DNA from: Myxococcota bacterium
GTDB taxonomy: Bacteria; Myxococcota_A; SURF-8
Assembly (NCBI GenBank): GCA_965140415.1
Contig: OZ223209.1
Span: forward strand, 384,001-448,000
Length of the DNA stretch: 64,000 nt
Direction: 5' to 3'
The position numbers were made by a program, and so were the translations under genes. The notes under the pieces were generated by a model, which was not told where the DNA came from, ran no database searches, and worked only from the letters and a program-made list of their open reading frames with translations. Below are positions 20,333 through 37,582 of this stretch, piece by piece (position 1 is the first letter of the stretch; each line of letters begins with the position of its first letter).

Positions 20333-20455
20333 GATCGGCACTCCTTCTTATTCGGTCAGCGTAAAAGGTCTCTTTTAGAAACGGCGGTATTGTCCCCGAG
20401 AGAAGCCGGAATGTCAACTATTGAAGGTTGTGAATTCGTGGTGGGCATAAACAGA

Positions 20456-20484
20456 GACGAGGCGGGCTGAATGCCCGCCTCGTC
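20456..20484 (-). terminator. Putative terminator after the giant lipoprotein gene
   Basis: GACGAGGCGGGC-N5-GCCCGCCTCGTC perfect 12-bp stem, TCTGTTT after it on the minus strand; a second hairpin lies at 20496-20519. Confidence 0.65.
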
Positions 20485-20524
20485 GTGTCGATCTCAATGG
20501 TGGAGCGATCTCCACCGTTCAATC

Positions 20525-23500
20525 TTATTCAGGACAGCTACGAGGCGTATCGCCTTCCGTTGCTTCCGTCGTACACGAATACTGGCTGTAGGTGCTCGAC
20601 CAGCCGCACAGCGGATAGTCGCCCTCGCAGGTGAATTCATGCACCAGGCCTGCCTGGCAGCGACGCAAACCGGTATCGCCAACACAGCAGCCTTCCTCTT
20701 CGGTGATGCCGTAGCATTCATCGGCTGGATTCCCTTCTACCGTCAAGGTGAATTCCTTGCTCGTGTAGCTGCTGGGAAGTTCGCCATCAACCACCAGATG
20801 GTAGGTGCCGGTGGCCGGAGCGGTGAACTCGAATGCATCGAAGGTGGTTCCATAATACTGATCCACACCAGCCAGACAAACCATGCAGTTTTCGCCGATG
20901 TACGCACCCAGATCCAGCGAATCGTCGGTGGTATCCACGCGAACGCGGATGGTATCGCCTTCCGTCAGATCCAGTTCGAACATCAGATCTTCACCAGTGG
21001 TCACCCAACCGGTGCAGTCTTCACCGAAGTCGAAGCTGGCTTCGTTCACTTCGTGCGTGCCGGTGTAAGGCAGGTCGGCGAAAGCGCCCAGGTCCACATC
21101 CGCAGTCGGACAGGCCGGAACAGCCTGACAACTGCCACCCTGAACCGAGCGCGTCTGCATCTGCAAGGTATCCCCGGCGTTCACGTTCATTTCGAACCAG
21201 TCGGCATCGTCGGTGCCGATGTAACCCGTGGCCAGAGCGGGAATGACGATTGCATTGGCTTCGCCCATGGCGTTATTGGGTTCGGTTTCGCTGATGGCAT
21301 TGTATCCGTTGCGCACCGGAGTCTCTTCTGAAACGAGCTGGTAGTATCCGGTGGAAGTGGAGCTGTAGCCGTACACTTTAAGGTAATACGTGCCGTCTAC
21401 ATCGAAAGTGTGAGAGATCAGTGAATACAAGCCTTCACCGCCGTCGTCGTTGTAGGCGATATATTCAGCGCCGTCCGACGCCCACAGTTCCAGTTTGGTA
21501 TCCACCGTGTCATCGGTCATCGAAGTGTCGCAGTACAACCCGCTCTGACATTCGAAGTTTTCGCTGCACGCGCCGTCTTCGGGAACCGTGCCGAACTGAC
21601 CGTCATCGACGCAGCGATTGATGTCACCCTGATTGCTCAAGGTGGCGCAGGTGTAGTTTGCCGGGCAGGAATCACTGTCGCCACGAGCAGGAGCACCGAA
21701 GGTGCAGTCTTGATTGCACTTGCCTTCGTAGCAGACTTCACTGTCACATTCCAGATCCGTTTCGCACAGCGAACCGAAAGGTTTGTTCGCTTCGGCACAG
21801 GTAAAGGTCAGCGTGTAATCGCTGACGGCACCACTGTAGCCATCTACCACGATGAAGTAGCTGACTCCAGCATCGGCGTTGAACTGAATCTGCTCATCAC
21901 TCGTTCCGGTCGAACGGGTGATGCAGGTATTGGGATCGCAACTGCTGAGCAGGAAGAGATCCAGATCGGCGCTTAGCCCCGTCAGATCGACCGTGATCAA
22001 CTTGTCCGTATCCGATACGAAATTGTACAGCACTTCCGGTGCGGATTCCGTAAGCGTCGTGCAGGAATACAGGTCGTAGTTGGAACTGCCGTTGGTTTGG
22101 TTGTTGTGGGTGAAGCTGTCGTCACAGGTGGCATCGAAATCGGTGGTGCAGCAATCGACGTTCAGACGGCAGTCGTAATCATCGCAATCGGTGTTGCCGT
22201 CTTCGTCGTTATCGATGTCGTCGCCACAGTTTTCTTCGCCGCCTCCGATCAGGTCGCAGCTTCCAGCTTCTGCGTTGCATGTGGCGTTGCCGTCCACACA
22301 CTCTTCGGCAAGGCGCATGATGTCGCAGGAATCGGTGTTGTACAGATCGTTGTCCTGACAGACCTGCGGAGCCGCATCGGGTGCGCAGATATAGGTGCCG
22401 TATCCGATGTCTATACAGGTGCTATCCGGCGGACAAACGCCGCTCGTACTGCAATCGACGGTGCAGAACCAATAGTCCGAACCCGTGTACGCCACACACA
22501 CGCCGCTGTCTCCGCAGGAGTCGGTGACGTCCGGGTCGCAGGTGTCGCACTGTACGCTGCCTCCGCAGTTGTCGTCGAACTGGCAATCCACATCATCGCA
22601 ATCGGTGTTGCCGTCTTCGTCGTTGTCGAGATCGTCTCCGCACATTCCGACTTCACCACCGCCGATCAGATCGCACACACCATCAACATCATTGCATTCT
22701 TCATTGGTGGCGTCGCAGTCGGCATACAGTAACGAAATGCCGCAGGTGTCGACGGAGTAAACATCTTCCTCCGTGCAGGAGTAGCTGTCCAGAGTCGGTA
22801 CGCACCAGGAGACATCGCCGACCGAGGTGCAGTCCATGCCGTCTCCACAGGTTTCACCACCAGTGCAGTCCAGCACGCAGAACCAGTTGTCATCGTCTGT
22901 GTAGTGAATGCACTCGTAACCGGTGTCGCAGGGCTGGTAGTTTTCCGGGTCGCAGGTTTCACACTGCACTCCGCCGCCGCCGGTGCATTCCGATTCGGTA
23001 TAGGTGAACTGGTAATTGTTGATTTCGTTGTTGTTGCCGTATTCATCGACCTTGACGTAATAGGTGCCAGCCGGCAGGCAACCGACGCGGATGCGTGAGA
23101 ACAGGCCGGTATCATCGTCGTTGTAACCAATCTCGTTATCACTGGAATCATAAAGCCACATGCGCGTATCGCCGCTGGCTCCGGAGGTCTGCATTTCAAC
23201 CGTGGTCTCGGCAGTCAAGGTGAAGGTCCACCAGTCTACATCGGTAGCCGGGCAGATCGAGTGATCCTCGGATACGCCATTAACCGGTGTCGTGGCTGCG
23301 GTGGATTCGTTATCCGATTCATAGGCATCGTTTTCACAGGGAGGAACATCCTCGTCGCCGTCGATATCGCCATCGATATCGCCGTCGGTGGCGCAGTCTG
23401 CACTGTCATCGAAGTGATCGTCCGGATAGACGATGGCGCAGAAATCGTCGCAGTAGTTATCACCCTGCCAAGCACAGGGGTCCGCCGCCGCACAAGAACA

Positions 23501-24946
23501 GTTGTCGTAATAGGTGCCGCAAACATAGCTGTCGCAACTATCATAGTTGCAGGCGCAACCTTCAATGGCATCTACACACATACCCGAGTCATATCCCGCA
23601 CCCGTACAAAGCGCATTGCAGTCGCCGTTGCCGTAGCAATCCGCGTTGTCGCCGTCTACGTCGCCATCCACATCACCGTCGGTGGTGCAGTCCGCGCTGT
23701 CGTCGAAGTAATCATCCGGGTAAGCGAGGGCACAGAAGTCATCGCAGTAGTTGTCGCCTTGCCAGGAGCAGGGGTCCGCCGCCGAACAGGAGCAGTTGTC
23801 GTAGTAGGTGCCGCACACGTAAGAATCGCAGCTATCGTAGCTGCAAACACAGCTTTCGGTGGTGTCGTTGCAAATGCCGGAATCGTAGCCTGCATTGATG
23901 CAGCCCGAATTGCAATCGCCGTAACCATAGCAATCGGCGTTGTCACCGTCGACCACATCGCCATCGACCACATCGCCATCGATCACATCACCATCGATCA
24001 TGTCGCCGTCGATCATGTCGCCATCGATCATGTCGCCGTCGACATAGTCTCCATCGATGAGATCGCCATCCGGGTTGCAGGCTTCCTGGCTGAAGACCAG
24101 GGTGCAATAGCCGGGGCAGGTGGCGGTTACGCTGCCGTCTTCGTTGGTTGAAATGGTGCAGATTTCCAGAATAGGCATTTCGTCGATTTCGCAGCCTTCG
24201 ATATGAACTTCGGCATCGTCCTGACCTTCCAACACGACGGTAATGGTGAATCCACATTCGACATCCGTGTCTTCTTCGACCACGGCATACTGCGCGACCA
24301 ACTGATCGCACGCTGGCCCGGTTTCCGAAGCGATGCAGTAGGTGCCCGGGAAGTCCGCACAATCGGCACAAGGATCATCACCGTCAATCATGTCGCCATC
24401 GGGCATGTCACCATCAGGCATGTCGCCATCGGGCATATCACCATCGGGCATGTCGCCATCGGGCATGTCGCCATCGGGCATGTCACCATCGGGCATGTCA
24501 CCATCGGGCATGTCACCATCGGTCATGTCGCCATCGGGCATGTCGCCATCGGGCATGTCGCCATCGGGCATGTCGCCATCGGGCATGTCGCCATCGGGCA
24601 TGTCGCCATCGGGCATGTCACCATCGGGCATGTCGCCATCGGGCATGTCACCGTCGGGCATATCGCCATCGACCTTGTCACCGTCAACCGAGTCGCCATC
24701 GATGGTGTCACCATCCGTGGTGTCGCCGTCGACGGTGTCACCGTCTACCGTGTCACCGTCCACCGTGTCACCGTCCACCGTGTCACCATCTACCGTATCG
24801 CCGTCCGTTTGATCGGCATCGGTTTCGGTATCGCCATCAGTCGTGTCACCGTCAATGCCATCATCACTATCGCCCCCGCACCCCATCGTGCCCAGCGACA
24901 ACAGCAACACCAATAGCAACAGCATCCAAAATTGCGTGGTCCGCAT
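20525..24946 (-). CDS. Giant 1473-aa Cys/Asp-rich surface lipoprotein with DGD arrays, duplicated Cys-rich modules and PPC-like domains
   Basis: Lipobox TMGC; AAGGAGG RBS; PPC-like motifs (D.DWWTF...NDD...GTYYVKV); CxDxxDNDxDGxxDCxDxDC motif twice. Confidence 0.85.
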   Translation of the reverse strand: MRTTQFWMLLLLVLLLSLGTMGCGGDSDDGIDGDTTDGDTETDADQTDGDTVDGDTVDGDTVDGDTVDGDTVDGDTTDGDTIDGDSVDGDKVDGDMPDGDMPDGDMPDGDMPDGDMPDGDMPDGDMPDGDMPDGDMPDGDMTDGDMPDGDMPDGDMPDGDMPDGDMPDGDMPDGDMPDGDMPDGDMIDGDDPCADCADFPGTYCIASETGPACDQLVAQYAVVEEDTDVECGFTITVVLEGQDDAEVHIEGCEIDEMPILEICTISTNEDGSVTATCPGYCTLVFSQEACNPDGDLIDGDYVDGDMIDGDMIDGDMIDGDVIDGDVVDGDVVDGDNADCYGYGDCNSGCINAGYDSGICNDTTESCVCSYDSCDSYVCGTYYDNCSCSAADPCSWQGDNYCDDFCALAYPDDYFDDSADCTTDGDVDGDVDGDNADCYGNGDCNALCTGAGYDSGMCVDAIEGCACNYDSCDSYVCGTYYDNCSCAAADPCAWQGDNYCDDFCAIVYPDDHFDDSADCATDGDIDGDIDGDEDVPPCENDAYESDNESTAATTPVNGVSEDHSICPATDVDWWTFTLTAETTVEMQTSGASGDTRMWLYDSSDNEIGYNDDDTGLFSRIRVGCLPAGTYYVKVDEYGNNNEINNYQFTYTESECTGGGGVQCETCDPENYQPCDTGYECIHYTDDDNWFCVLDCTGGETCGDGMDCTSVGDVSWCVPTLDSYSCTEEDVYSVDTCGISLLYADCDATNEECNDVDGVCDLIGGGEVGMCGDDLDNDEDGNTDCDDVDCQFDDNCGGSVQCDTCDPDVTDSCGDSGVCVAYTGSDYWFCTVDCSTSGVCPPDSTCIDIGYGTYICAPDAAPQVCQDNDLYNTDSCDIMRLAEECVDGNATCNAEAGSCDLIGGGEENCGDDIDNDEDGNTDCDDYDCRLNVDCCTTDFDATCDDSFTHNNQTNGSSNYDLYSCTTLTESAPEVLYNFVSDTDKLITVDLTGLSADLDLFLLSSCDPNTCITRSTGTSDEQIQFNADAGVSYFIVVDGYSGAVSDYTLTFTCAEANKPFGSLCETDLECDSEVCYEGKCNQDCTFGAPARGDSDSCPANYTCATLSNQGDINRCVDDGQFGTVPEDGACSENFECQSGLYCDTSMTDDTVDTKLELWASDGAEYIAYNDDGGEGLYSLISHTFDVDGTYYLKVYGYSSTSTGYYQLVSEETPVRNGYNAISETEPNNAMGEANAIVIPALATGYIGTDDADWFEMNVNAGDTLQMQTRSVQGGSCQAVPACPTADVDLGAFADLPYTGTHEVNEASFDFGEDCTGWVTTGEDLMFELDLTEGDTIRVRVDTTDDSLDLGAYIGENCMVCLAGVDQYYGTTFDAFEFTAPATGTYHLVVDGELPSSYTSKEFTLTVEGNPADECYGITEEEGCCVGDTGLRRCQAGLVHEFTCEGDYPLCGWSSTYSQYSCTTEATEGDTPRSCPE
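23936..24070 (-). repeat. 15-bp tandem repeat, 9 units, encoding DGDxx
   Basis: DGDLI DGDYV DGDMI x3 DGDVI DGDVV x2 DGDNA. Confidence 0.9.
24371..24805 (-). repeat. 15-bp tandem repeat, 29 units, encoding DGDxx (17 x DGDMP)
   Basis: Plus-strand unit GGGCATGTC(G/A)CCATC counted across 24386-24670 (19 DGDMx units), flanked by DGDTV-type units. Confidence 0.95.
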
Positions 24947-25175: not shown

Positions 25176-26579
25176 TCAGCGCCAAGACGAGTGCCGCTGT
25201 TCGAGTTGCTCGTCGAGCATCTTCTGAATCCGGTTACGCACTTCGTTGGAAAGACGATTCACCACTACTCGGTCGGTAGCGGCTTCTGGACCGAACTGAT
25301 TGATGAAGATCGGCTCGCCGAAAACGATGGTCCACTTCGACGGTAAAGGCAACAATCCAAACGGTCCAAGCCACGGGAATTGAGGCGTAATCGGCAAGAA
25401 CGGCAATCCCAGACTCTTTGCCAGACCACCCAGATTGGCCATAACTGGATGCGTTTCTTCCGAACCGACCACCACCATTGGAATCACTGGAGAATCGGTT
25501 ACCAGACAGAGTTTGACGAAACCTCCGCGTCCAAAGCGCTGCAAACGATAGCGATTACGGTAGGGTTTGACAACTCCCTTGATTCCCTCGGGAAATACGC
25601 AGGTCAGTTCGTCTTCCAACAACAGGCGCTGTGCATTTTCCTGACAGGCGCGCACCATGCCGAAGCGGTTGAGAATCGGTCCCAGAATCGGAGCGTAATA
25701 GAAGTAATCCTCGATCAACGGCCAGACGTTACGCTTGCATTCCCAGCGCACCGCATTGCGAATCATCAAACTGTCGAAAGGAAGAATGCCCGCATGGTTG
25801 GACACCAGCACAGCACGTCCCTGCTGCGGAATGTTCTCCGCTCCCAGTACCGTGACGCGATAGTAAAAACGATACAGGAATTGAATCAGGGGTTGAATGT
25901 GCTTGGAATATCCCGGATCGAATCCATATTCCTGACCCAATTCAAAACCTTCCGGGCGCAACAGTTTCAGCAGGTCCGGATCGCCGCCCCCGATAGCCAT
26001 CGACGGACGCATCTTGGGAGTTGCATCCTTTTTCTGAGCGACGGTTTTTTTCCTGGCTACAGCTTTTTTCGGCGCGGGAGTTTGTTTTACCTGTTTCGGT
26101 GTATCCGCTATTGCGGTTTTCGTTTTCGCAGTCTTCTTCGAAGCTGGTTTTACAGCAGCGGCAGTTTTAGAAGCGGTACCGGTTGATTTAGCGCTTTGCT
26201 TTGCTGCCTTTTTAGCGGGAGTGCTTTTTGCTGCTGCTTTCGTAGGAGCCTTTTTAGTTGTGGTTTTCTTCATTGCCGTTTTCTTTGCGGCAGCCGGTTT
26301 GGAAGCCGTTTTGCTGGCTGTCGGTTTTTTAGCCGCAGTCTTTTTGGGAGCCGCCTTCTTCGGGGTTGCCTTCTTTACCGGTTTCTTACTGGTTTTAGAA
26401 TCCCCATCCGGTTGTTTTGCAGCTTTGGCCGGTTTCGTTGGCTTTTTCTTTTTCTCGGCTTTCGACGCAGCTGGTTTCTTGGCGGATTCCTTCTTTTCGT
26501 CGCCTGCGGATTTCTTTTGAGAGCCGGTTTGACTCTCGATCTGCTGGAAGGGATCGCTACCCAATACCGATTTTGCCAT
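25176..26579 (-). CDS. Lysophospholipid/PlsC-type acyltransferase with long Lys/Ala-rich (histone H1-like) N-terminal extension
   Basis: NHAGILPFD (HX4D), VFPEG, FGRGGF, GSEE motifs; residues ~15-190 are K/A/P/T low-complexity. Confidence 0.88.
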   Translation of the reverse strand: MAKSVLGSDPFQQIESQTGSQKKSAGDEKKESAKKPAASKAEKKKKPTKPAKAAKQPDGDSKTSKKPVKKATPKKAAPKKTAAKKPTASKTASKPAAAKKTAMKKTTTKKAPTKAAAKSTPAKKAAKQSAKSTGTASKTAAAVKPASKKTAKTKTAIADTPKQVKQTPAPKKAVARKKTVAQKKDATPKMRPSMAIGGGDPDLLKLLRPEGFELGQEYGFDPGYSKHIQPLIQFLYRFYYRVTVLGAENIPQQGRAVLVSNHAGILPFDSLMIRNAVRWECKRNVWPLIEDYFYYAPILGPILNRFGMVRACQENAQRLLLEDELTCVFPEGIKGVVKPYRNRYRLQRFGRGGFVKLCLVTDSPVIPMVVVGSEETHPVMANLGGLAKSLGLPFLPITPQFPWLGPFGLLPLPSKWTIVFGEPIFINQFGPEAATDRVVVNRLSNEVRNRIQKMLDEQLEQRHSSWR

Positions 26580-26599
26580 CTGCTGCTTCTCCTTTATCT

Positions 26600-27589
26600 T
26601 CAGGCGGCTTTGTTACGGCGCGTTTGTTGCAGACTATTGAGTGCTTCGAAACAGGTATACTTAGGAACGAAACCGAATTCCAATGCGGCCTTGGTTCCAT
26701 CCGCCACCCATGGATACTTGATGTGGTTGATATACTCACTTGGAACATCGTAGAGCTTCAGATTCCACAGCAACGAACTGGTCGCGCGTAAAATCGAATC
26801 CGGCGCGGTCAGGCACTGTCCCCCGGCGCGCTGCACGGCTTCGGAATAGCGCACGACGCCTTTTCCCACGATGTTGTAAATACCCTCCACATCATTCAGA
26901 ATCACCTGTTCGTAGGCATCCATCAGATCGTTTTCATGAATGAACTGCATCATGGGATCGTAACCCAATACGCGCGGAGCGCGGGCGGAGGTCAACACGT
27001 TGCTCATGTAGTTGGAGGCGGTCGGACCCAAGGCGGTGCAATCGCGCAGGATCGCCACCTTGCATTCTTCATGGTGGCGCGCATACTGTCGCATCTGCCG
27101 TTCCAACTCGATTTTGTCGGAGATGAAACTGTCTTTGGCCTGCTCGTCCACCGGATGCTGCTCGGTCAGGAAATTCGGGTTGCCTCGTTTTGCACCATAG
27201 ACCGCCGTGGTGCTTCGTGCAACGATACGGCGTACTCTGGCTTCCGAACAGGCGTCGAGCACGTGCATGGTGCCGATGGCTTCCAGTTCGTGCGCCAGCA
27301 GGCGATTACGAGCGACGGTATACGCAACGATCAGATGTACGAAGGTGGAAACACCCTCGGATTGGAACAGGTTGATCAGCACTTGCTGAGAGGCCGGGCT
27401 GGTCAGATCGACCTTGTGGTAGATGAGCTTGGGATGCTCGATTTTCGGTTCATTGACATCTACCGCGACCACCCGCGAAATACCCGGTTGATCGAGCAAA
27501 CGTTTGAGCAGTCCGACGCCCAGGTAATTGGATGCACCGGTCATTGCCAGTACCTCACCCGTTTCTACCGCTTTTTGTGAGCTGTTCAT
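26600..27589 (-). CDS. NAD-dependent epimerase/dehydratase (extended SDR)
   Basis: TGASNYLG Rossmann motif, STTAVYGA...NP.FLTE, GYDPMMQFIHEND; start moved to ATG 27589 (GGAGGAG). Confidence 0.85.
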   Translation of the reverse strand: MNSSQKAVETGEVLAMTGASNYLGVGLLKRLLDQPGISRVVAVDVNEPKIEHPKLIYHKVDLTSPASQQVLINLFQSEGVSTFVHLIVAYTVARNRLLAHELEAIGTMHVLDACSEARVRRIVARSTTAVYGAKRGNPNFLTEQHPVDEQAKDSFISDKIELERQMRQYARHHEECKVAILRDCTALGPTASNYMSNVLTSARAPRVLGYDPMMQFIHENDLMDAYEQVILNDVEGIYNIVGKGVVRYSEAVQRAGGQCLTAPDSILRATSSLLWNLKLYDVPSEYINHIKYPWVADGTKAALEFGFVPKYTCFEALNSLQQTRRNKAA

Positions 27590-27791
27590 GCTCTCCTCCC
27601 TGTGGCGTGCGTCCTTCCAGATTTCCGGCTGCGGCTCATTCGGCAGAGTCGCTTCCCCGATTGGCGCGGAAACCAGAGCCTCTCCGTTTCCCGCAGGATG
27701 ATGAGCGAAGCGCCGCTCATCCCTGCCGAGCCCCAGGCATCGCAACCCCCACCTAAAAAACGATCTCCACATCCAGCCGCTCGGATTTTTC

Positions 27792-29228
27792 TTACTGCTG
27801 GAATAATTCGTTGGTGCAGTCGGCCACGCAGTACTTGCCCGCGAACTGCCCGTCCTCCATCTTCATGCAGGAGTAGCCGCGCGGACACATCACCGTGCCC
27901 TGGTCCACGCCGTCGTCGGTATTGACGGTGCAATCCCACTTGATCAGGCAGAAGTAACCCAGCGATACATCTTCGTCTTTCAGCTCGAAGCAGGCACCGT
28001 CCGCTCCGCATTCCTGGTTCTGGTTATTCGTGTCGGTGCAGGGGTCACAGAATTTCTGCACGCCAAAAGGATTGGAGCATTCGCCGTCTGCTTCGTGCTT
28101 GGGATTGAAGCAGCAGCCGCGCTCTTCCGGCGACAGATCGCGACCTTCAGTGGTGCACATCTGCGCCAACGCGCATTGATAGGTGCCGTCGCAGCCGATG
28201 CGTTCCACGCACTCATACTCGGTTTTACCATCGGGAATCAGACATTCGTTGTAGGCGGAGCAGTCCGCATCCACTTCACAACCCGGAATACAGGAGAAGG
28301 TGCTGACGTCGCACAGGTGTTCCAGCGGGCAATCATCCTTGCTGACACAGTCGCCTTCCAGGCATTTGCCGTTGTAACAGACCTCGCCGCCCAGACAGTC
28401 CTTGTTGATCAGGCAACCTATCTGGCAGTAGCCGTTGCGGCTATCGGAAGGATCGTCATAGCAGACCATCCCCGCCGGACAGGCGGAACCGCTGCCGCAA
28501 CCTTCGAAGCATTTTCCGGTCAAGGTGTTGCAAACCAAAGGTTCCGCGCAGTTTTCATTTGTGCAGCAATTGTCACCGACCTGACCGTTTGCGATACCGG
28601 AGGAAAAGACACACTGGTTGGTGTTCAACTCCGCAATCGGGAGGCAATCGTAATCGGTCGGGCAAGGATCGCTGGCCGAGCAGTAACGCCCGCAGACATT
28701 GCCGTATGAATCGGGCAGACAATAATCGTCGTCGTGACCGCATTCCCGGTGATTGTCGCAGGGTTCACAGGGTGCCAGGCGGCGACGGCAGATGCCGTTT
28801 TCCTCGTCGCAGTAGTCGTTCCCGTAACAATCGCCATCGTCGTAGCAATCCGGCTCGGGACCGGTGTCCTTGTCGCCGTCGACCGGTGTGATAACTACCC
28901 CGCCGTTGTCGCCGTCAGCCTGATCGCCATCCGCCGCATCCGTGTCGCCATCGTTGGAATTATCGCCGTCGGTAGAGTTGAGCACGCAGGTATGATTGCC
29001 GAGATTGCAGATCTCTCCTAGCTGACAATCTTGATCGGTTTTGCAGGCCACGGCCTCGCATTGTCCGTTCGAGCAGATCCTCTTGTCACCGCAGTCGTCG
29101 TCCGTGGTGCAGGATGTATCGTTATTGCCCTCGTCTTCATCCGATCCGCAACCGGCGGCGAATGCAACCAATAGTGATAAAACCAACATTAAGAGAAGAG
29201 CGCCGTTGCTTCGATCCAAGCGTGTCAT
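27792..29228 (-). CDS. Cys-rich lipoprotein (CxxDxDC...C repeats) with DGD linker
   Basis: Lipobox AAGC; many C..D.DC..G..C..G.C units; AAGGAGG RBS before ATG 29228. Confidence 0.8.
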   Translation of the reverse strand: MTRLDRSNGALLLMLVLSLLVAFAAGCGSDEDEGNNDTSCTTDDDCGDKRICSNGQCEAVACKTDQDCQLGEICNLGNHTCVLNSTDGDNSNDGDTDAADGDQADGDNGGVVITPVDGDKDTGPEPDCYDDGDCYGNDYCDEENGICRRRLAPCEPCDNHRECGHDDDYCLPDSYGNVCGRYCSASDPCPTDYDCLPIAELNTNQCVFSSGIANGQVGDNCCTNENCAEPLVCNTLTGKCFEGCGSGSACPAGMVCYDDPSDSRNGYCQIGCLINKDCLGGEVCYNGKCLEGDCVSKDDCPLEHLCDVSTFSCIPGCEVDADCSAYNECLIPDGKTEYECVERIGCDGTYQCALAQMCTTEGRDLSPEERGCCFNPKHEADGECSNPFGVQKFCDPCTDTNNQNQECGADGACFELKDEDVSLGYFCLIKWDCTVNTDDGVDQGTVMCPRGYSCMKMEDGQFAGKYCVADCTNELFQQ

Positions 29229-29266
29229 CAGATCCTCCTTATTACTTCCCACGAAGAAGCAAATGG

Positions 29267-30634
29267 TTATTTGCTTGTAACATCTACTGCCGTTTTCTTA
29301 CGCTGCACTTGCTTTCTAGGTGCACGTTTCAACCCTTTACCGGATTTTTTAAGCGGCTGCGTCGGATTTTGCAGCATTTTTCTCAATTCGTTTTGCGCCA
29401 GTTCTTTCTTGTCGGAAAACTCGATCGTTCCGAAACGATTCAAGGTGTGGAAATCACCGACCAATGTCGGCGACCACATGGCGGCGATGGTGCCGCGCTT
29501 GGCCGGACGTTCCATGCGATACAGGTTCAACCGCCATTTGTCACCCGGCTTGGGCGGCATATTGGGAGCATCTTTCATGGCCGCCAGGGGAATTGCCATT
29601 TCCACAATCCAGCCCTGATCCTTGTCCGTACGCTGGTTGACGGTACCCTTTACCTGCACCGCCGATTTCAGCCCGGCGTCCCAGGAGATGTCCATGCCCT
29701 TGCGCCGTTTCGGGAAATAGGCGTCGTACACGGCATTGACCGGGTTGACCTGCATCTCGTAGTAGGTGGAGCCACTGCCGTCTGCATCGATCATGACTTC
29801 GGTGGTTTCTTCACGATACAGGGGATCGTCTTTCTTGTTGTAGTTGGTCCAGATGTCACTGTCGGAACAATCAAAGGCGATATACAGATTCGTGTCGTCC
29901 CACAGCATTTTGGCGCTGGTGGTCGGCTTGACCGGACCTTCTCCGCTCAGGTTGCCGAAATCGCCGGTGGAACGGGCGCGTGACCATGCGGCTTCGTCGA
30001 GTTTACCATCGATCGTGATGGCCTGATCGGCGCGCAAAACAACCAGATCGCGCTGAATGGAGGGCGGGTCGTCCAGCGGCAATACCGCCAGCTTGGCGCG
30101 GCCTTCGCCGTCGGCTTTGTCCCGGCTCTCTTTGGCGATGGGCATACGTTTGTCGCCTTTGTAGAAACCGCCCCACAGGACGCCTTCGTTATAGGGGAAT
30201 CCGGCTGGCATGTGGCTTTTGAACGTGTCGCGAATGATATCGCCCTTGCGCCACTGCGAGGTTTTGTATTTGCCGTCTGCAACGTGGTGATCCATTTTAC
30301 CCCGGAACAGCGGACCTTTGCTCGGTTCGAAATGCCCGAAGAACTGGTAATCACCCGGAATGGTATCCAACGCCTGCATGAAGAAAGTGATGGTGTAATC
30401 CTGGTTGTGCTTGAGCGGCTTGGGGCTGTAATTCAAGCCCAGAATGCGGATTTTGTCGTCGAGATTGACGTTGATCTCCACATCGTATTTCTTGGGGGCA
30501 CTGGCAAGCAGGAAGGGTTTGTCCGCAATGGCTTTGCCTGCTGTGGCAGTATTTTTAGGTTGCTCGCAACCTGCGACAAACAGGACTAGCATGACAAACG
30601 ACATACAATATGCTACACCACGCAAACCTCTCAT
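29267..30634 (-). CDS. Lipoprotein with carbohydrate-binding family 9-like (CBM9/DOMON-like) domain
   Basis: Lipobox VAGC; IDGKLDEAAW, KMLWDDTNLYIAF, YYEMQVNP, WIVEMAIP, WRLNLYR, WSPT...FH. Confidence 0.85.
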   Translation of the reverse strand: MRGLRGVAYCMSFVMLVLFVAGCEQPKNTATAGKAIADKPFLLASAPKKYDVEINVNLDDKIRILGLNYSPKPLKHNQDYTITFFMQALDTIPGDYQFFGHFEPSKGPLFRGKMDHHVADGKYKTSQWRKGDIIRDTFKSHMPAGFPYNEGVLWGGFYKGDKRMPIAKESRDKADGEGRAKLAVLPLDDPPSIQRDLVVLRADQAITIDGKLDEAAWSRARSTGDFGNLSGEGPVKPTTSAKMLWDDTNLYIAFDCSDSDIWTNYNKKDDPLYREETTEVMIDADGSGSTYYEMQVNPVNAVYDAYFPKRRKGMDISWDAGLKSAVQVKGTVNQRTDKDQGWIVEMAIPLAAMKDAPNMPPKPGDKWRLNLYRMERPAKRGTIAAMWSPTLVGDFHTLNRFGTIEFSDKKELAQNELRKMLQNPTQPLKKSGKGLKRAPRKQVQRKKTAVDVTSK

Positions 30635-30736
30635 ACCCGGCTACCTCCATAAGTGGGTGAATTTCGATAAAACATGTTGAAATCGTTTATAATTCAACCG
30701 GAAAAGCATACCGCAGGGCAGGAAAGCACGTCAAGC

Positions 30737-30769
30737 AAAATCCCCGCCACTTGAAATAAGCAGCGGGGA
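30737..30769 (-). terminator. Terminator after the YqeY gene (possibly bidirectional)
   Basis: TCCCCGC...GCGGGGA stem with AAAA on the left and a T run on the right. Confidence 0.65.
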
Positions 30770-30826
30770 CTCTCTTTTTTTAGTGAAAACCCAGGTTAAT
30801 CTGTTCAAAAAGAGGCGTGCTATGAC

Positions 30827-31285
30827 TCAGCCTGCCAGAAGGCGTGTGGCGATCTCTTTGACCAATGCGGCATCCACCTGACCTTTGTACTCTTTCATAA
30901 CGGCACCCATCAGGCGTCCGATCTGGTTGGCTCCGGCGATACCCTGCTTTTCGATCAGATCGGCCACCAGTTTTTCGGTTTGCGCTTCGCCGAGCATTTT
31001 GGGCAGGAACTGCTCCAGGTACTCGATTTCAAAGCGGATCTGATCCAGCTTTTCCTTGCCGCGCTCACCGGCCTGTTCGAATTGCGGCAGCGCTTTCTGC
31101 TGCTGCTTGACGTAGGTGCCGATCACTTCCTGCGCCATTTCGTCGGTCAAGGGACCGGCAACGCCTTTTTCGGACAGTTTCAGTTGAAAACGCGACTTGA
31201 CCATGCGCAACACAGCAAGTTGCTGCGCGTCCTTTTTCTTCATCGCCTCTTTAAGGCGGGTGTTGAATGTCTCAAGAATTCCCAT
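30827..31285 (-). CDS. GatB/YqeY domain protein
   Basis: LKEAMKKKD...LRMVKS, EIEYLEQFLPKML, IGRLMGAVMK..KGQVD; start moved to ATG 31285. Confidence 0.9.
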   Translation of the reverse strand: MGILETFNTRLKEAMKKKDAQQLAVLRMVKSRFQLKLSEKGVAGPLTDEMAQEVIGTYVKQQQKALPQFEQAGERGKEKLDQIRFEIEYLEQFLPKMLGEAQTEKLVADLIEKQGIAGANQIGRLMGAVMKEYKGQVDAALVKEIATRLLAG

Positions 31286-31302
31286 CGTTTTCCCCTTTTC
31301 GA

Positions 31303-31890
31303 CTACAGATCGCCGTCGGTGGTTGCCGTGTCGCCATCCGTCGTGGTGTCGTCGCAACCGCCTGCGGACAGAAATACGTCCAAGCTGGTGAAGCTCTGGC
31401 TGTAGCTGCCGGCACCCATCAGCACGTTGTAGCCGTACATGGCCGAGTGTGCCGCGTAATCCTGATCGTAGAAGAAAAAGCGGGTGGAAGACGCGCCGTT
31501 GACGTTGCCGTCGGCTTCCTCATTATACGTTTCGTTACCGTCTTTATCGAGATAGCTGTACACCAGCACCTCGGTGCGCTGCGTGACGCCATCGCCGAGC
31601 AGATCCCACTTTACGTCGGAGGCGGGCAGGGTTTCCAGTGTCAGGAAAAAGTTGGGCGAAGAGGTGTCGATGGCGGTAGAGGCAATCTCGCGTAATTCAT
31701 TGTCCGCCGTGCTTGCCATGGCGCCCACGCGCAGGTTTTCGGCATTTCCCGTTACCTGACAACCACCGATGCGGCCATTAAAGCTGCGTGCGATCAACGG
31801 ATTCTCGTCGTCGTCATCGCCGCCGCAGGCAACGCACAGACCCAGCATCATTCCCATCACAGCCAACATGGCTACCCATCGCTTACTCAT
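31303..31890 (-). CDS. Hypothetical lipoprotein with C-terminal DGD tail
   Basis: Lipobox CVAC then GGDDDDE; ends TDGDTATTDGDL; AAGGAG RBS. Confidence 0.78.
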   Translation of the reverse strand: MSKRWVAMLAVMGMMLGLCVACGGDDDDENPLIARSFNGRIGGCQVTGNAENLRVGAMASTADNELREIASTAIDTSSPNFFLTLETLPASDVKWDLLGDGVTQRTEVLVYSYLDKDGNETYNEEADGNVNGASSTRFFFYDQDYAAHSAMYGYNVLMGAGSYSQSFTSLDVFLSAGGCDDTTTDGDTATTDGDL

Positions 31891-31919
31891 CACGCTTCTC
31901 CTTCTTAGGATATCTCCGT

Positions 31920-32696
31920 TTAGCGAATCACTTTTTGATAAAACTCTTCGGCCAGCGCACCGACCATCACGGCTCCGCGTCCGCTGGCATCGTATTCCCA
32001 GATCGTCTGGCCGAAGCTCTGCGCCTCGTCCAGCCGGACATTGTAACCCAGAATGGTTTTGGAAATCTGCTGCGGGAAATACTGGGCCAGTTTCGCCACG
32101 ATTTCGTTGGCAAGGCGGGTGTTGCGATACAATGTTGGAATCACCATACCCAGTTTCGGCGTTTCGCCGCCGTTTCGTTCCCGCACGGTCTGGATCGAAT
32201 GCACGACTTCCGCGCAGCCGTCCATGGCCAGATAGGTCAGCGCCACCGGCACCACCACGAATTCGGAAGCCGCCAGAATGTTCGTCGTCACCAGCCCCGC
32301 CGAAGGGGGCGAATCGATGAAGACGTAGTTGTAATCGGTCGTCGAGGCCAGTTTGGCGATGACCTGTTTCAAGCGCTGTTCGCGATCCTTTTTCACCGCC
32401 AGCTTTTCCGGCAGATTCGAAATGGATTTATTGGAACAGATGATATCCAGCCGCTCGTAACGGGTGGTGACGATCGCCTCAGCCGGGTTGAAGCCGGGTG
32501 TCGTCAGCACGTCGACGATGGAGTGCGGCACATCGCGCACCGGAATTCCCAGCGATTTACCTGCGTGACCCTGGCTGTCCATGTCGATCACGAGGGTTTT
32601 CTTGCGCTTTTTCTGCGCGATATAGGAGGCGAAATTGACCGTTAACGTGGTCTTGCAGGTGCCTCCCTTTTCATTGATGAAGGAAACGACCTTCAC
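31920..32696 (-). CDS. ParA/Soj family ATPase (orphan, no adjacent ParB)
   Basis: NEKGGTCKTT deviant Walker A, LVIDMDSQG, FIDSPPS, NVRLDEAQSFGQTIWEY. Confidence 0.92.
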   Translation of the reverse strand: MKVVSFINEKGGTCKTTLTVNFASYIAQKKRKKTLVIDMDSQGHAGKSLGIPVRDVPHSIVDVLTTPGFNPAEAIVTTRYERLDIICSNKSISNLPEKLAVKKDREQRLKQVIAKLASTTDYNYVFIDSPPSAGLVTTNILAASEFVVVPVALTYLAMDGCAEVVHSIQTVRERNGGETPKLGMVIPTLYRNTRLANEIVAKLAQYFPQQISKTILGYNVRLDEAQSFGQTIWEYDASGRGAVMVGALAEEFYQKVIR

Positions 32697-33064
32697 GCCG
32701 AAATCTCCTTGCTTTTAGCGCCCTTGGCGCTGGATGCGCGTTTTTTTGCTGTCGTTTTAGGAACTTGAAGCGCATCCAGTTTGGTTTCCATACGTTCCAT
32801 AATTTCCTCTACTGAAAACAGCCGATCTTCCAGCGCGTGCAGTTCTTCCTGCAATTTGGCGACATCGCCCTTGGTGGGAATGTTCACCTGCTCCAAAGCG
32901 GCTGTAACGGATTTCTGAATGATATCACGAAATTCCAGAGATGCCAGCATCATTTTCTGAAAAGTCATCATGAAACGTTCGTTGTTCATGATCGCAGTTA
33001 ATGCCTCGGAAATGCGGTCACTGTACATGCCGCGCAGGTCGTCGAAAAAACGGGATTTTGTCAT
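32693..33064 (-). CDS. Small coiled-coil protein resembling phasin (PhaF/PhaI) or PhaE/PhaR C-terminal region, with basic tail
   Basis: NIPTKGDVAKLQEELHALEDRL motif; tail KTTAKKRASSAKGAKSK; stop overlaps ParA start (GTGA). Confidence 0.65.
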   Translation of the reverse strand: MTKSRFFDDLRGMYSDRISEALTAIMNNERFMMTFQKMMLASLEFRDIIQKSVTAALEQVNIPTKGDVAKLQEELHALEDRLFSVEEIMERMETKLDALQVPKTTAKKRASSAKGAKSKEISA

Positions 33065-33327
33065 TGTCGTTACACCACTTTCACTTGGGTGACCCGGTGC
33101 CGTCGCCGGATTCCTCACCCTAACTAGTCGTTACTGAAATTGCAGCAGCCTCTGCCGTTACGGCGCTGGGAAGTATGGCATAACCTCGACTTTCAGACAA
33201 GGGAAAAGCTATACGGGATCACGATCCGTTTCGAGCGAATCGACTCCTTTCCTGTGACCATCCATCACCCGTTTCCGCCTCGATTCCGAACTGTCTTTTC
33301 TGTGGCTACAGCAGAGTCTGAAAGATA

Positions 33328-33416: not shown

Positions 33417-33974
33417 ATGACAGAGCAGGAAAAACAACCGGAACCGGACGAGAACATCGAACCGGAGCAGAACCAGCCTCAACAAGCGGATAACGAGGCT
33501 AGCCAGCCGATTGCGCAGCTACTGGAAGAAGATCCGCAGGTGGCGGATCTGGTCTACCGTGTGTTGGCGCGTGCCATCGATTCAGTGGTGTTCACCATGT
33601 TTTGCGGAGTGGTGTATCCGGCTGGAATTTTTGCGGGTTTGCTGTATTTACTCATCGCCGATGGTCTGATGGAAGGCCGTTCGCTGGGCAAGCGCATTAT
33701 TCGCTTGCGGGTCGTATCCGATATCGACGGTTCCCCCATCGGCTTTCGCCGCGCGATGATCCGCAACAGCCCTTTCGTGCTGGTCTCTTTTTTCGCTGTC
33801 ATCCCGATCATCGGTTGGATTCTGTTGTTTACGGTCGGAATGCTGATTCTGGGTGCGGAACTCTATTTCGCCATCACCGATACACGCGGTCAGCGCATCG
33901 GAGATATTCTGGCGGGAACGCTGGTTGTAGACGACCGACCAACGCAGAATCATAAGCCGGATTACGAAATCTAG
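33417..33974 (+). CDS. RDD family membrane protein
   Basis: RVLARAID, GRSLGKRIIRLRVV, RAMIRN, QRIGDILAGTLVV. Confidence 0.9.
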   Translation: MTEQEKQPEPDENIEPEQNQPQQADNEASQPIAQLLEEDPQVADLVYRVLARAIDSVVFTMFCGVVYPAGIFAGLLYLLIADGLMEGRSLGKRIIRLRVVSDIDGSPIGFRRAMIRNSPFVLVSFFAVIPIIGWILLFTVGMLILGAELYFAITDTRGQRIGDILAGTLVVDDRPTQNHKPDYEI

Positions 33975-34025
33975 GAGCGAGCGGCATCGCTCCATCCATT
34001 ACCGAGTGATTGGAACTGAATCTCA

Positions 34026-37000
34026 ATGCGAATCAAACGTCTGGACATCGTTGGGTTCAAATCTTTTCCCAACAAAACCACCCTGCTGTTCGACAAGCCC
34101 ATTGTGGGTGTAGTCGGTCCCAACGGCTGCGGAAAATCCAATATCGTGGATGCCATTCGCTGGGTCATGGGCGAGCAGGGAATGAAGGCTTTACGTGGCC
34201 GCAATCGCGAGGATGTCATTTTCGCCGGTTCGGAAAGCCGCGCTCCCAGCGGAGTGGCGGAAGTCACCTTGACTTTCGATAACAGCGACCGCTTGGCCCC
34301 GCCGCAGTACGTCGATTACGCCGAGATCGCCATCACGCGTAAACTCTACCGAAACGGCGACAGTGACTACCTGATCAACAACACCGAATGCCGCCTGAAA
34401 GACATTACCGATATTTTTCTTGGAACCGGTGTCGGCAACAAAGCCTATTCCATTATAGAACAGGGTCGTATTTCCTTAATCGTTTCGGCCAAACCGGAAG
34501 ATCGTCGCTTTATGATCGAAGAAGCGGCGGGCATCACCAAGTACAATACACGCAAACGCGAAGCCGAGCGCAAAATGGCCGCCACGCGGCAGAACCTGCT
34601 GCGCGTCAATGACATCATAACCGAACTGAAAAAGCAGCTCGGTTCGTTATCCAGGCAGGCGAAAAAAGCCGAACGCTACCGCGAATATAAAGCACAGTAT
34701 AAACAACTGGATCTGCGTTTCAGCGCTCATGACTATGCCGAAATCGTGCGGCAGGGCCAGGTGATTATTGACCGCATCGCAGAACTGGAGCAGGGCATCA
34801 CCGATAATGCCAACAAGCTATTGGCCCTGGAAGGCGAAGTCAATGCGCGTAACCTGCAACTGGCCGAGTGGGAACAGAAAGTCACTACTGAGCAGGAAGA
34901 AGCCATTCGTCTGGATCAGCAGATCAGTTTATCCGAGCGCGATCTGCAAAGTTACAGCGAGGAAATCGAACGCATTTCCGCACGCAAGCTGGAATTCGAA
35001 CGCGAAGCGGAAGACCTGATTCAACAACTGGACACCCAGAAACGTCTGGTCGAGCAGTTGGAAGGAGAACAGCGCCGGGCCGTGGAGCAGGCGCAACTTT
35101 TCGAAGGCGAACTGGCCGACGTTCAGGAGCGCAGCCGCGCCGTACTGGATGATCTGGGGCAGAAACAAAACGATGCCGAACGCTTAAAGCGTACGATCAA
35201 CGAATCCATTTTAAATGCCGACCGGGCGCGGCATCGGCTGGAAACCATTCGCCAGCGCGCCAATGAGAACGTCGAACGCACCGAACGCAATCGACGCGAA
35301 AAACTCGAACTGGAAACCCAGCACGACGAGCAGGAAGCCCAGCGCGAAGTATTCCTGAACGATCTTGGTGGCTTGCGACAAATGAAGCTGCGACTGGATA
35401 CCGAACGCACCGAAACCACGGATCGGTTGTCCGCCGAGCATGAAGCCTATCTCGACGTGGAAGAACGCCTGACCAATGAACGCGACTCGTTCACGGCGGT
35501 GCGCTCGCGTCTGGATTCTCTACAGGAACTGGACCGCAGCCTGGAAGGTTTCGGCGAGGGTGTCAAGGCGGTGATCGGTGCGTCTGAGGGACGCTTTGAC
35601 GACGGCGAACTGGTTGACGTGCTGGCGCGTCTGGTGGAAGTGGACGTCGAGCACGAAAAAGCATTGAGCGCGGCATTGGGCGAACGTTTACAGTGGCTCG
35701 TGGTGCGTGACCGACAGGCCGGTCATAAAGGACTCTCTTTATTGGAAGAGTTGCAGGCCGGGCGCGCGGGCTTTATCCCTTCTCAAGGGATGCTGCCGCA
35801 ACATGACGATGCGCCTGAAAACTGCCGCAGCCTGCTGGAAGTCGTGCGCGTCAAGCCGGAAGGCGGCGACAGCATGGAGCGGCTGCTGTCTGGTGTGATG
35901 CTGGTGCCGGATATGGCCACGGCGGAAAGCGAATGGGAACGCTGCAACGGGCGCTATTCCTTCGTCACGCCGGAAGGTGTATTGCTTGATTCCAGCGGCG
36001 CAATTTACGGTGGCGGTGGAGAAAGCATTTCGCAGGCGTTGTTGAAACGGCAACGCGAAATGCAGCAATTGTCTAGCCAGAAAACAGAACTAGCGGCATC
36101 TTGCGAACAACTGGCGCTATTGCGCGACGAGCACCTGCAACGCATCCGCTCGCTGGAACGCCAGGTCGAATCCACCCGCCAGGAAGGTCACCGGCAGGAA
36201 ATCAAGATCCTGGAGCAGGAAAAAGACCTGCGCCATTTGGAAGACGGTATCGATCAGCTTCGGCGGCGGTTGGAATCGCTGGAACGCGAATTTCACGCTT
36301 ACCAAAGCGAAATGGGTGAGTTACAGGAACAGCGTCGCGAACAGGAAGCGAAACTCGAACAGGAAACGGACACGCAACAGCGCTCGGAACGGCAGTTGCA
36401 AAGCGCGCAGATCGAATTGGCTGAATTGTCCGAGCGGCGCGAACTGATTTCCCGCGAATTGACCGATAAACAGGTGCAACTGGCCGAAGCCTCGCAGAAA
36501 CGGCGACATCTGGAGAGCGAATTGAAGATGAGCCGCCAGCGGGAAGTCGATCTGGCCGGGCGGCGGGAGAAAATCACTTTCGATCGCGAACAGGGCGACA
36601 GCCGCAATGAGCAACTCACGCGCCTGATCGAAGTCTCGCGTGAAAAGCGCGAAACGACCATTCAACAGCGCGAACAGATGGAAGCCAACCTGCGTAAGCA
36701 ACGCGAGGAACTCAGCCACGAGCAGGAAGCCTTGCGCGACATGGCCGAGCAGGTACGCGCCGCACGGCACAAGCAGGAAGAACTGAACGGGCAGTTGTCC
36801 GAGTCCAAGCTGACGCGCAACGAATTATCCTTTAAATCCAAGCACCTTGAAGAACGCATCCAGGAACGATATGGCCTGGATCTGGGCAAGGACTATTTCG
36901 AATACATCACCGAGGAAGAACCGGGCGAAAAAGAACGCGACGAAATGGAGCGCATCAAGGGACACATCGAGCGCATCGGCGATGTGAACCTGGGTGCGAT

Positions 37001-37568
37001 TTCGGAGTACGACCAGGTCAGCGAACGCTATCAATTCCTGCTGGATCAGGAGGAAGATCTCAAGCGCTCGCTGGATATGCTGGAAAACGCCATCAAGAAA
37101 ATCAACCGCACCACGCGCAAGCGCTTCAAGGAAACCTTCGAAGAAGTCAACCGGCGTTTCTCCGAATTGTATCCGCAGCTTTTCGGCGGCGGCGAGGCGC
37201 GCCTGGAAATTCTGGACCCGCAGGACATGCTGCATACCGGTCTGGAAATCGTCGCGCGACCTCCGGGTAAAAAGTTACAGGCGGTAAGCCTGCTCTCCGG
37301 TGGTGAAAAGGCGTTAACAGCGGTCAGCCTGATTTTTGCGATCTTTTTGTATCGCCCCACGCCATTCTGTCTGCTCGATGAGGTCGATGCGCCGTTGGAT
37401 GACATCAACATCAGCCGTTTCAACTCGACGGTCAAGCGCATCTCCAAGTTGAGCCAGTTCATCCTGATCACACACAACAAGAAAACCATGGAAATCACCA
37501 ACACGCTTTACGGCGTGACGATGGAAGAACCGGGTATTTCCAAAATTGTTTCCGTAAATTTGACCTAA
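34026..37568 (+). CDS. smc: Chromosome segregation protein SMC
   Basis: GPNGCGKSN Walker A, long coiled coils with hinge, LSGGEK signature, LLDEVDAPLD. Confidence 0.98.
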   Translation: MRIKRLDIVGFKSFPNKTTLLFDKPIVGVVGPNGCGKSNIVDAIRWVMGEQGMKALRGRNREDVIFAGSESRAPSGVAEVTLTFDNSDRLAPPQYVDYAEIAITRKLYRNGDSDYLINNTECRLKDITDIFLGTGVGNKAYSIIEQGRISLIVSAKPEDRRFMIEEAAGITKYNTRKREAERKMAATRQNLLRVNDIITELKKQLGSLSRQAKKAERYREYKAQYKQLDLRFSAHDYAEIVRQGQVIIDRIAELEQGITDNANKLLALEGEVNARNLQLAEWEQKVTTEQEEAIRLDQQISLSERDLQSYSEEIERISARKLEFEREAEDLIQQLDTQKRLVEQLEGEQRRAVEQAQLFEGELADVQERSRAVLDDLGQKQNDAERLKRTINESILNADRARHRLETIRQRANENVERTERNRREKLELETQHDEQEAQREVFLNDLGGLRQMKLRLDTERTETTDRLSAEHEAYLDVEERLTNERDSFTAVRSRLDSLQELDRSLEGFGEGVKAVIGASEGRFDDGELVDVLARLVEVDVEHEKALSAALGERLQWLVVRDRQAGHKGLSLLEELQAGRAGFIPSQGMLPQHDDAPENCRSLLEVVRVKPEGGDSMERLLSGVMLVPDMATAESEWERCNGRYSFVTPEGVLLDSSGAIYGGGGESISQALLKRQREMQQLSSQKTELAASCEQLALLRDEHLQRIRSLERQVESTRQEGHRQEIKILEQEKDLRHLEDGIDQLRRRLESLEREFHAYQSEMGELQEQRREQEAKLEQETDTQQRSERQLQSAQIELAELSERRELISRELTDKQVQLAEASQKRRHLESELKMSRQREVDLAGRREKITFDREQGDSRNEQLTRLIEVSREKRETTIQQREQMEANLRKQREELSHEQEALRDMAEQVRAARHKQEELNGQLSESKLTRNELSFKSKHLEERIQERYGLDLGKDYFEYITEEEPGEKERDEMERIKGHIERIGDVNLGAISEYDQVSERYQFLLDQEEDLKRSLDMLENAIKKINRTTRKRFKETFEEVNRRFSELYPQLFGGGEARLEILDPQDMLHTGLEIVARPPGKKLQAVSLLSGGEKALTAVSLIFAIFLYRPTPFCLLDEVDAPLDDINISRFNSTVKRISKLSQFILITHNKKTMEITNTLYGVTMEEPGISKIVSVNLT

Positions 37569-37582
37569 GGAATTAGCGAACG

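Follow-up and report, generated by a model that had tools for sequence, protein, structure and literature searches.

The locus studied here raises the question of which partner, and which cargo, is served by a ParA-type ATPase whose gene has no parB beside it. It lies in a 64,000-nt stretch of a Myxococcota bacterium genome (assembly GCA_965140415.1, contig OZ223209.1, positions 384,001 to 448,000 of the forward strand; hereafter the window, whose own numbering is used unless genome positions are indicated), and the host genome is a single contig of 5.98 Mb that is 93.7% complete. A minus-strand run of genes at 25176..33064 starts with a gene for a small phasin-like protein followed by parA, and ends with a gene of the short-chain dehydrogenase/reductase (SDR) fold followed by an acyltransferase gene. 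An earlier note on this DNA had proposed that ParA, a small phasin-like adaptor and a DNA-binding acyltransferase make lipid or polyester inclusions and space them on the nucleoid. Our analysis points to another partner: ParA likely engages a short peptide at the N-terminus of the acyltransferase, and neither the small protein nor the enzyme's H1-like tail. At a probability of roughly 0.55, we favor a ParA/MinD-type, McdAB-like system that positions acyltransferase-loaded neutral-lipid inclusions on the nucleoid, in which cargo, enzyme product and ATPase stimulation are what we infer; the genes themselves form a real conserved module, a variant of ParA/MinD cargo positioning that is itself new.

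The parA gene (31920..32696, minus strand) encodes an orphan ParA/Soj-type ATPase (AAA_31, E=2.8e-41) of a distinct Myxococcota subfamily. The ParA/Soj-type signature is kept (deviant Walker A with its signature Lys, catalytic Asp pair, switch II Asp); residues K10, K15, T16, D38, D40 and D128 are invariant in 42/42 aligned rows, and position 14 is Cys in 35. By sequence-only alignment to 8RAY, with the numbering offset inferred from five matching leucines, residue 221 corresponds to R238 of Myxococcus xanthus ParA, and it is Lys or Arg in 35/42 rows; R238 is needed for DNA binding (PMC12462528). In sequence, the protein resembles chromosomal Soj (8RAY, 188 bits) more than McdA (6NOO, 62 bits), and it falls in its own clade, apart from chromosomal ParA, with about 20 clusters at 50% identity heading the ParA profile search. 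The subfamily is present in 23 genomes of a 161-genome sample of the phylum, in which Myxococcia seem thinly represented, and M. xanthus encodes a member (e.g. WP_140876956.1; 408 bits, 45% identity to the window ParA). Divergent members were considered for two genomes, G094 and G139, and not found there, the best matches grouping with other ParA clades. There is no parB beside the window parA, and the canonical parA-parB pair of this genome is at genome positions 152262-153997; the positions that form the ParB pocket (L150, L152, L155, L187, L192) are degenerate in the subfamily except for one Leu. Another ParA of this genome (80-1114, minus strand) carries an N-terminal Cys-rich repeat region; G094 and G154 have relatives of this protein, and at one locus or more (L249) the parA relative is followed by a small gene.

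The candidate partner element is the LGx(D/N)P(F/L) peptide at residues 4-11 of the acyltransferase (26547..26570, minus strand), which in the window reads LGSDPF at residues 6-11. Among 20 rows selected for the motif, L, G and P are invariant and D and F are conserved in at least 90%; 61 of the 120 closest homologs have the peptide, and in every one its first residue is at index 4-10. As counted in three panels, it is present in 27/30 genomes that have the ParA subfamily (13/15, 9/10 and 5/5) and in 6/69 that do not (0/24, 2/18 and 4/27), where the first panel leaves out the weakest acyltransferase copies (under about 98 bits), the second covers copies at E<=1e-54, and the third takes the best 30 of 56 acyltransferase matches, less G222 and two that had already been counted. 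The two carriers missed in the first panel are G002, with no acyltransferase match, and G005, which is 79% complete. The peptide occurs on two acyltransferase clades and tracks ParA rather than enzyme phylogeny: three genomes (G022, G027 and G037) have it in the acyltransferase encoded next to parA, their copy of the window's clade being without it, and G010, which has a run of small gene, SDR and acyltransferase genes and lacks this ParA, lacks the peptide as well. The acyltransferase gene of G044 (L140:271-2280) appears to be frameshifted between peptide and catalytic domain, probably by a long-read error, and its peptide, read in a shifted frame, is included in the 5/5.

We modeled the ParA dimer with ATP, Mg and acyltransferase residues 1-38, together with three controls. 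The dimer-peptide model scored 0.67 and the best control 0.00; the mark for this score is reached by 116/157 solved pairs and 2/215 mismatched pairs, counts that are rough for a job with its own alignments and ligands. At least 86% of contacts recur between runs, and only peptide residues 4-11 and 13-14 contact ParA. The predicted pocket consists of residues 155-166 and 194-206 of one subunit and 224-229 of the other, and being built from both subunits it fits dimer-dependent binding. Peptide residue D9 is contacted by ParA residue 202, which is Lys or Arg in 27/33 rows of the subfamily vs Glu in 8/9 other ParAs, and acidic in 98/129 lower-ranked hits of the profile search. We consider it likely that ParA binds the N-terminal peptide of the acyltransferase.

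Gene neighborhoods were compared in the best 80 of 178 confirmed parA loci, 79 of which had enough flank for counting the upstream gene. The gene immediately 5' of parA is phasin-like in 74/79 (and in 9/9 relatives of the same order), phaR is present in 65/80, and a gene for a Get3/BagAB-like ATPase, transcribed away from parA, in 61/80, with a pair of such genes in 55. The acyltransferase gene is inside only 3/80 of these loci. In two of these three (L075 and L091, the latter labelled Candidatus Poribacteria) the phasin-like, SDR, parA and acyltransferase genes are contiguous in one run, and parA abuts the acyltransferase gene in 15 further genomes (G012, G022, G027, G032, G037 and 10/10 further carriers of the 161-genome sample). 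Lineages with this adjacency have another SDR-acyltransferase pair beside phaR, mostly with Get3-like genes (11 loci), and the genome studied here has phaR and two Get3-like pairs elsewhere; the same gene set is thus reshuffled across lineages. Since the linkage is conserved across lineages, the association goes beyond chance, and the earlier note was right that the four genes form one module and co-occur in other genomes, though not for the reasons it gave. Its storage-inclusion context is likewise supported by the PhaR and Get3-like neighbors of parA. Tandem Get3/BagA-BagB-like pairs are found at L129:3439-5468 and at genome positions 354372-356527 and 1650078-1652169, and their company of phaR and SDR-acyltransferase genes suggests a lipid-storage role for an unexplained class of bacterial Get3. 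Some PhaR proteins combine the DNA-binding domain with a C-terminal segment that resembles the P..D..L..L coiled coil of the small protein (probability 33%); such fusions are encoded at L168:1102-1701 and L129:6862-7620, in genomes without PhaC.

The system we propose would work as follows. ATP-bound ParA dimers, whose ATPase and DNA-binding residues are kept, would coat the nucleoid. Judging from the conserved neighbors, the acyltransferase and its SDR-fold partner would sit on lipid bodies or where these arise at the membrane, the bodies would be coated by the phasin-like protein and by PhaR through its phasin-like C-terminus, and the Get3/BagAB-like ATPase pair may load hydrophobic proteins. 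The LGxDPF peptide, on its long flexible linker, is predicted by the model to dock in the pocket formed by both ParA subunits. By analogy with McdB-bound carboxysomes, docking would stimulate ATP hydrolysis and clear ParA locally, and the bodies would move up the ParA gradient and space out; in this order, the basic linker may add passive DNA tethering. As the enzyme would double as a ParB/McdB-like activator, no dedicated adaptor gene would be needed. We advance only tentatively the fuller version, in which the droplet-making enzyme is both the ParA activator and the missing non-WS/DGAT (wax ester synthase/diacylglycerol acyltransferase) synthase of triacylglycerol (TAG) in myxobacteria, and a polyhydroxyalkanoate (PHA) toolkit (phasin-like coat, PhaR) is re-used without PhaC, with the Get3/BagAB-like pair as loader.

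A number of observations weigh against this proposal. The modeled partner has low confidence (pLDDT 51-52), and since peptide-bound ParA/MinD complexes have been solved, the model may have passed through likeness and not through binding. The predicted pocket differs from the validated ParB pocket of M. xanthus ParA, and the peptide has no conserved basic residue like R13 of ParB (PMC12462528). Carrier G112 has a degenerate peptide (LVRDPF), weak acyltransferase copies were not all read for the peptide, and because the genomes are related the panel counts are not independent, so we give no p-value. A variant of the peptide persists in six genomes where the subfamily ParA was not found; it reads LGDNPF in five of them and LGDDPF in the sixth. 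One order has the subfamily ParA in 0/61 genomes and the acyltransferase in 55/61 (0/60 and 54/60 without G222), and 5/29 of its acyltransferases that were read still carry LGDNPF. The acyltransferase folds like PlsC, a phospholipid enzyme, and its match to the DAGAT family (E=0.002, 19.9 bits) is below the cut-off of 22, with 11/83 members of its family matching at E<=0.001. Every phasin-family match of the small protein is below the curated cut-off. Finally, polar and central lipid bodies could also be explained by passive exclusion from the nucleoid.

The acyltransferase (25176..26579, minus strand; PF01553, E=2.3e-14) has a 200-residue N-terminal extension ahead of a catalytic domain of PlsC-like fold. 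Its model has a pLDDT of 95, and the best fold match is PlsC (5KYM, E=5e-7, TM 0.56). In the His-Asp dyad, H58 is nearly invariant and D65 is invariant in 83 rows, with HX6D spacing, not HX4D; by fold and dyad, the enzyme belongs to the PlsC-like glycerolipid acyltransferases (PF01553). It may be of the Rv0502 type. In mycobacteria, Rv0502 is listed as a conserved homolog of PlsC (PMC10593935). The PlsC-like fold and the weak DAGAT matches are shared with DIESL/TMEM68 and DGAT2-type enzymes, with a dyad of HX6D here vs H130-D136 (HX5D) in DIESL; human DIESL can produce TAG independently of DGAT1/2 and causes lipid inclusions to form in E. coli (PMC10482677). The partner gene, 20 bases upstream, encodes an extended-SDR-fold protein (26600..27589, minus strand; Epimerase PF01370, E=3.9e-19; start most likely the ATG with a ribosome-binding site at 27589), a constant companion of the acyltransferase. 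It carries F-I-S-D-K at the YxxxK position, no aligned partner SDR has YxxxK, and the protein is possibly non-catalytic. Peptide-less acyltransferase-SDR pairs, whose SDRs are also without YxxxK, occur in most of the phylum; this genome has a second pair, without extension or peptide, at L038:7829-9904 (genome 1815828-1817903).

This enzyme class also fits a reading in which ParA, bound to the peptide, brings the enzyme to the inner membrane rather than to storage bodies, there to remodel phospholipids or supply the division site with lipid. Besides PlsC being the closest solved fold, homologs are annotated as 1-acylglycerol-3-phosphate acyltransferases, the searches for PhaC and WS/DGAT yielded no known storage-lipid synthase in this order, and lipoprotein genes flank both blocks of the run here. 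It is made unlikely by the granule-type phasin-like and phaR neighbors of most parA loci and by other lineages in which SDR-acyltransferase pairs neighbor phaR and, for the most part, Get3-like genes as well.

Between peptide and catalytic domain lies a disordered linker rich in K, A, T and P (25995..26534, minus strand). Here it is H1-like, with 30% Lys, 23% Ala and a net charge of +48 over residues 16-195; many homologs have an acidic or neutral one, and across the 120 closest homologs its net charge runs from +46 to -29. The H1-like character is therefore local and the peptide is the conserved element, which rules out the tail as a conserved DNA tether and sets aside DNA binding as a core feature of the enzyme, as the earlier note had it.

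The small protein (32693..33064, minus strand; 123 aa) is predicted to form three helices (residues 3-26, 29-59 and 65-100) of moderate hydrophobic moment (at most 0.38), and it has both the K/A-rich basic tail and the peptide quoted in the earlier note. Its matches to the Phasin family (E=9.6e-5, 22.9 bits vs a cut-off of 28.8), to PhaE (15 vs 155 bits) and to PhaR of B. megaterium (TIGR02132; E=3.6e-8, 33.6 vs 148.4 bits) amount to resemblance, not membership, so that the phasin-like character seen in the earlier note stands as a likeness of profile and falls short of the curated cut-offs. The atlas assignment is PHA_synth_III_E (0.92). A word-index search with the small protein matched only itself, and relatives were collected through a gene-neighborhood search; 19/23 family members match the Phasin profile at E<=0.01. 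From profiles, helices and neighborhood, the small protein is likely an inclusion coat protein. This genome has two further phasin-like genes elsewhere.

Could the small protein instead be the McdB-like activator of ParA, with the basic acyltransferase tail tethering the bodies to DNA? Its translational coupling to parA, its place directly upstream in nearly all loci counted and its small coiled-coil size, like that of McdB, would suit this role. We nevertheless regard such a role as improbable: 14 of the genomes in which parA abuts the acyltransferase gene show no gene of this kind next to parA (though a diverged copy might have escaped the search), G010 has the small gene with SDR and acyltransferase genes in the absence of this ParA, no conserved N-terminal peptide was seen in the small protein, and the tail charge is unconserved. 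The same 14 genomes give no support to the claim that the small protein is a necessary adaptor.

Returning to the peptide as the ParA-binding element, it might serve a different partner, be it the enzyme's own catalytic domain, the SDR protein or some ATPase other than this ParA, with ParA moving an unrelated cargo and merely sharing the lipid-storage neighborhood. Apart from the six genomes that keep the peptide, it is in keeping with this that partner SDRs contain a similar LG(Y/F/H)DP(L/M) stretch, even where the genome lacks this ParA, and that the catalytic domain itself starts with a GxDPFG consensus. Such a partner is made quite improbable by the co-occurrence of peptide and ParA, by the switch of the peptide between enzyme clades with parA adjacency, by the 24/29 enzymes of the ParA-less order that lack the peptide, by the charge swap at ParA residue 202, and by a model that passed its controls. 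In that order, loci with an LGDNPF-type peptide are L261, L263, L264, L265 and L268, and main-family acyltransferases mostly have a conserved acidic linker in place of the peptide.

As to the cargo of the proposed positioning system, a profile search that was positive in a control genome found no PhaC_N or class III PhaC in this genome, and PhaC-like matches (E<=1e-20) occur in 0/15 ParA carriers vs 14/26 non-carriers. A PHA granule is thus very improbable in spite of the Phasin, PhaE and PhaR resemblance and of PhaC-like genes in 2/5 further carriers (G043 and G045; 262-328 bits, below the cut-off of 365), and we reject it as main cargo together with the polyester of the earlier note. WS/DGAT (PF03007) was found in 0/10 genomes of the order by a search positive in 14/41 panel genomes (3/15 ParA carriers and 11/26 non-carriers). 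M. xanthus still makes TAG and keeps its lipid bodies after deletion of its single DGAT (PMC4048283), and these bodies tend toward the poles and the center of the cell (PMC3950526). Neutral lipid is the best inference for the cargo, not a result.

Among known systems, McdAB of S. elongatus and H. neapolitanus likewise works without ParB, through a ParA-type ATPase that is proposed to travel on the nucleoid and to be cleared by the N-terminal region of a cargo-bound partner (PMC13052382, PMC11407121); unlike McdAB, the predicted partner here is a peptide of a metabolic enzyme, often encoded far off, and the cargo would be a lipid inclusion and not a protein shell. ParABS of M. xanthus is similar in its ATPase motifs, in the position of its DNA-binding Arg and in a partner peptide with L-G near the N-terminus (as in the ParB of this genome, LGRGLAALI), and differs in that the window ParA has no adjacent ParB, a degenerate ParB pocket and a peptide predicted at the C-terminal dimer site. 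MinD-MinE, and roughly ParF-ParG, are described as having a C-terminal pocket made of both subunits like the predicted one, a likeness by description (PMC12462528), whereas the window ParA is Soj-like and keeps the DNA-binding residue. The tethers PhaM, PhaF, PhaH and AlgP share the storage-granule context, a K/A histone-like tail (in this order) and, as in PhaM-PhaC, an enzyme-linked placement; they are not ParA homologs, and whether they depend on ATP is given as unknown (PMC13052382), whereas the present system centers on an ATPase, lacks PhaC and has a basic tail that is not conserved. PomXYZ and PadC of M. xanthus are likewise orphan ParA-family positioning systems in the same phylum, from which the window ParA differs as a separate clade with lipid-storage neighbors.

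A full-text search, with most subscription papers outside its reach, found no paper on this ParA subfamily, on the peptide or on ParA-driven placement of lipid bodies. A 2025 review counts the ATP dependence of storage-granule spacing among the unknowns and poses the question of a McdAB-like system (PMC13052382), and the words 'lipid' and 'granule' are absent from the accessible text of a 2024 review on the cargos of ParA/MinD ATPases (PMC11407121). The genetic model M. xanthus has patterned lipid bodies whose synthase is unknown (PMC3950526, PMC4048283), and it carries this ParA. The analysis supplies gene names, a peptide of eight residues and one pair of residues (K202 in ParA, D9 in the peptide), by which the questions of granule spacing and of the synthase become testable through single deletions. 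Many myxobacteria carry this unstudied ParA, and it may be what places fat droplets in their cells.

A reading-frame check of the window found all genes of the run on the minus strand and where the earlier note had put them, and confirmed the K/A tail, the absence of an adjacent parB and the overlap of the small gene's TGA with the GTG start of parA (GTGA). Upstream of the small gene is a promoter-like site inferred to serve it and parA (33172..33200, minus strand; TTGTCT, 17 nt, CATACT, with TG just 5' of the -10), and the same -35/-10 pattern is 5' of the small gene in relatives L059-L061. A PhaR operator was looked for 5' of the small gene and none was seen, the enriched words being -35 boxes and the start of the neighboring gene. 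Four genes, all on the minus strand, separate the two halves of the run, as had been claimed. Downstream of parA are a lipoprotein-like gene, probably a passenger (31303..31893; no Pfam/NCBIfam match), found 3' of parA in 9/9 same-order relatives and in none of the other loci, and a gene for a YqeY-like protein (30827..31285; PF09424, E=4.6e-29), an order-specific neighbor that follows near parA in 7/9. The claimed terminator is present as a 14-bp terminator-like hairpin that ends the first block (30739..30771; fold z=-2.88, 1/200 shuffles equally good), and is absent from the calls of a terminator scan. This hairpin, with a promoter-like site at 30734-30705, divides the run in two. The second block starts with two passenger genes, for a CBM9-domain lipoprotein-like protein (29267..30634; PF06452, E=1.7e-16) and a Cys-rich lipoprotein-like protein (27792..29252; a weak DUF7107 match alone), which are 5' of the SDR-acyltransferase pair in 5/7 relatives examined. 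The four intervening genes are only order-specific and we rejected them as parts of the system.

The two blocks lie within 10 kb of each other in 0/9 same-order relatives; they are 133 kb apart in G001, 237 kb in G008 and 1.25 Mb in G006, or on different contigs. Of ten genomes of the order, only this one brings them together within 8 kb, so that their closeness in the window is not itself evidence of a link; hairpin, internal promoter-like site and split blocks together rule out the 8-kb run as a single operon. On the plus strand, an RDD-family gene, smc and ftsY (33417-39061) diverge from the small gene, and they were not found adjoining parA in the relatives examined. Several lipoprotein-like genes of the window (19691-24946 and 27792-31893) encode Asp-Gly-Asp repeat linkers after the signal peptide, and a 1473-aa PPC-domain protein has many DGDMP repeats, with similar genes common across this genome.

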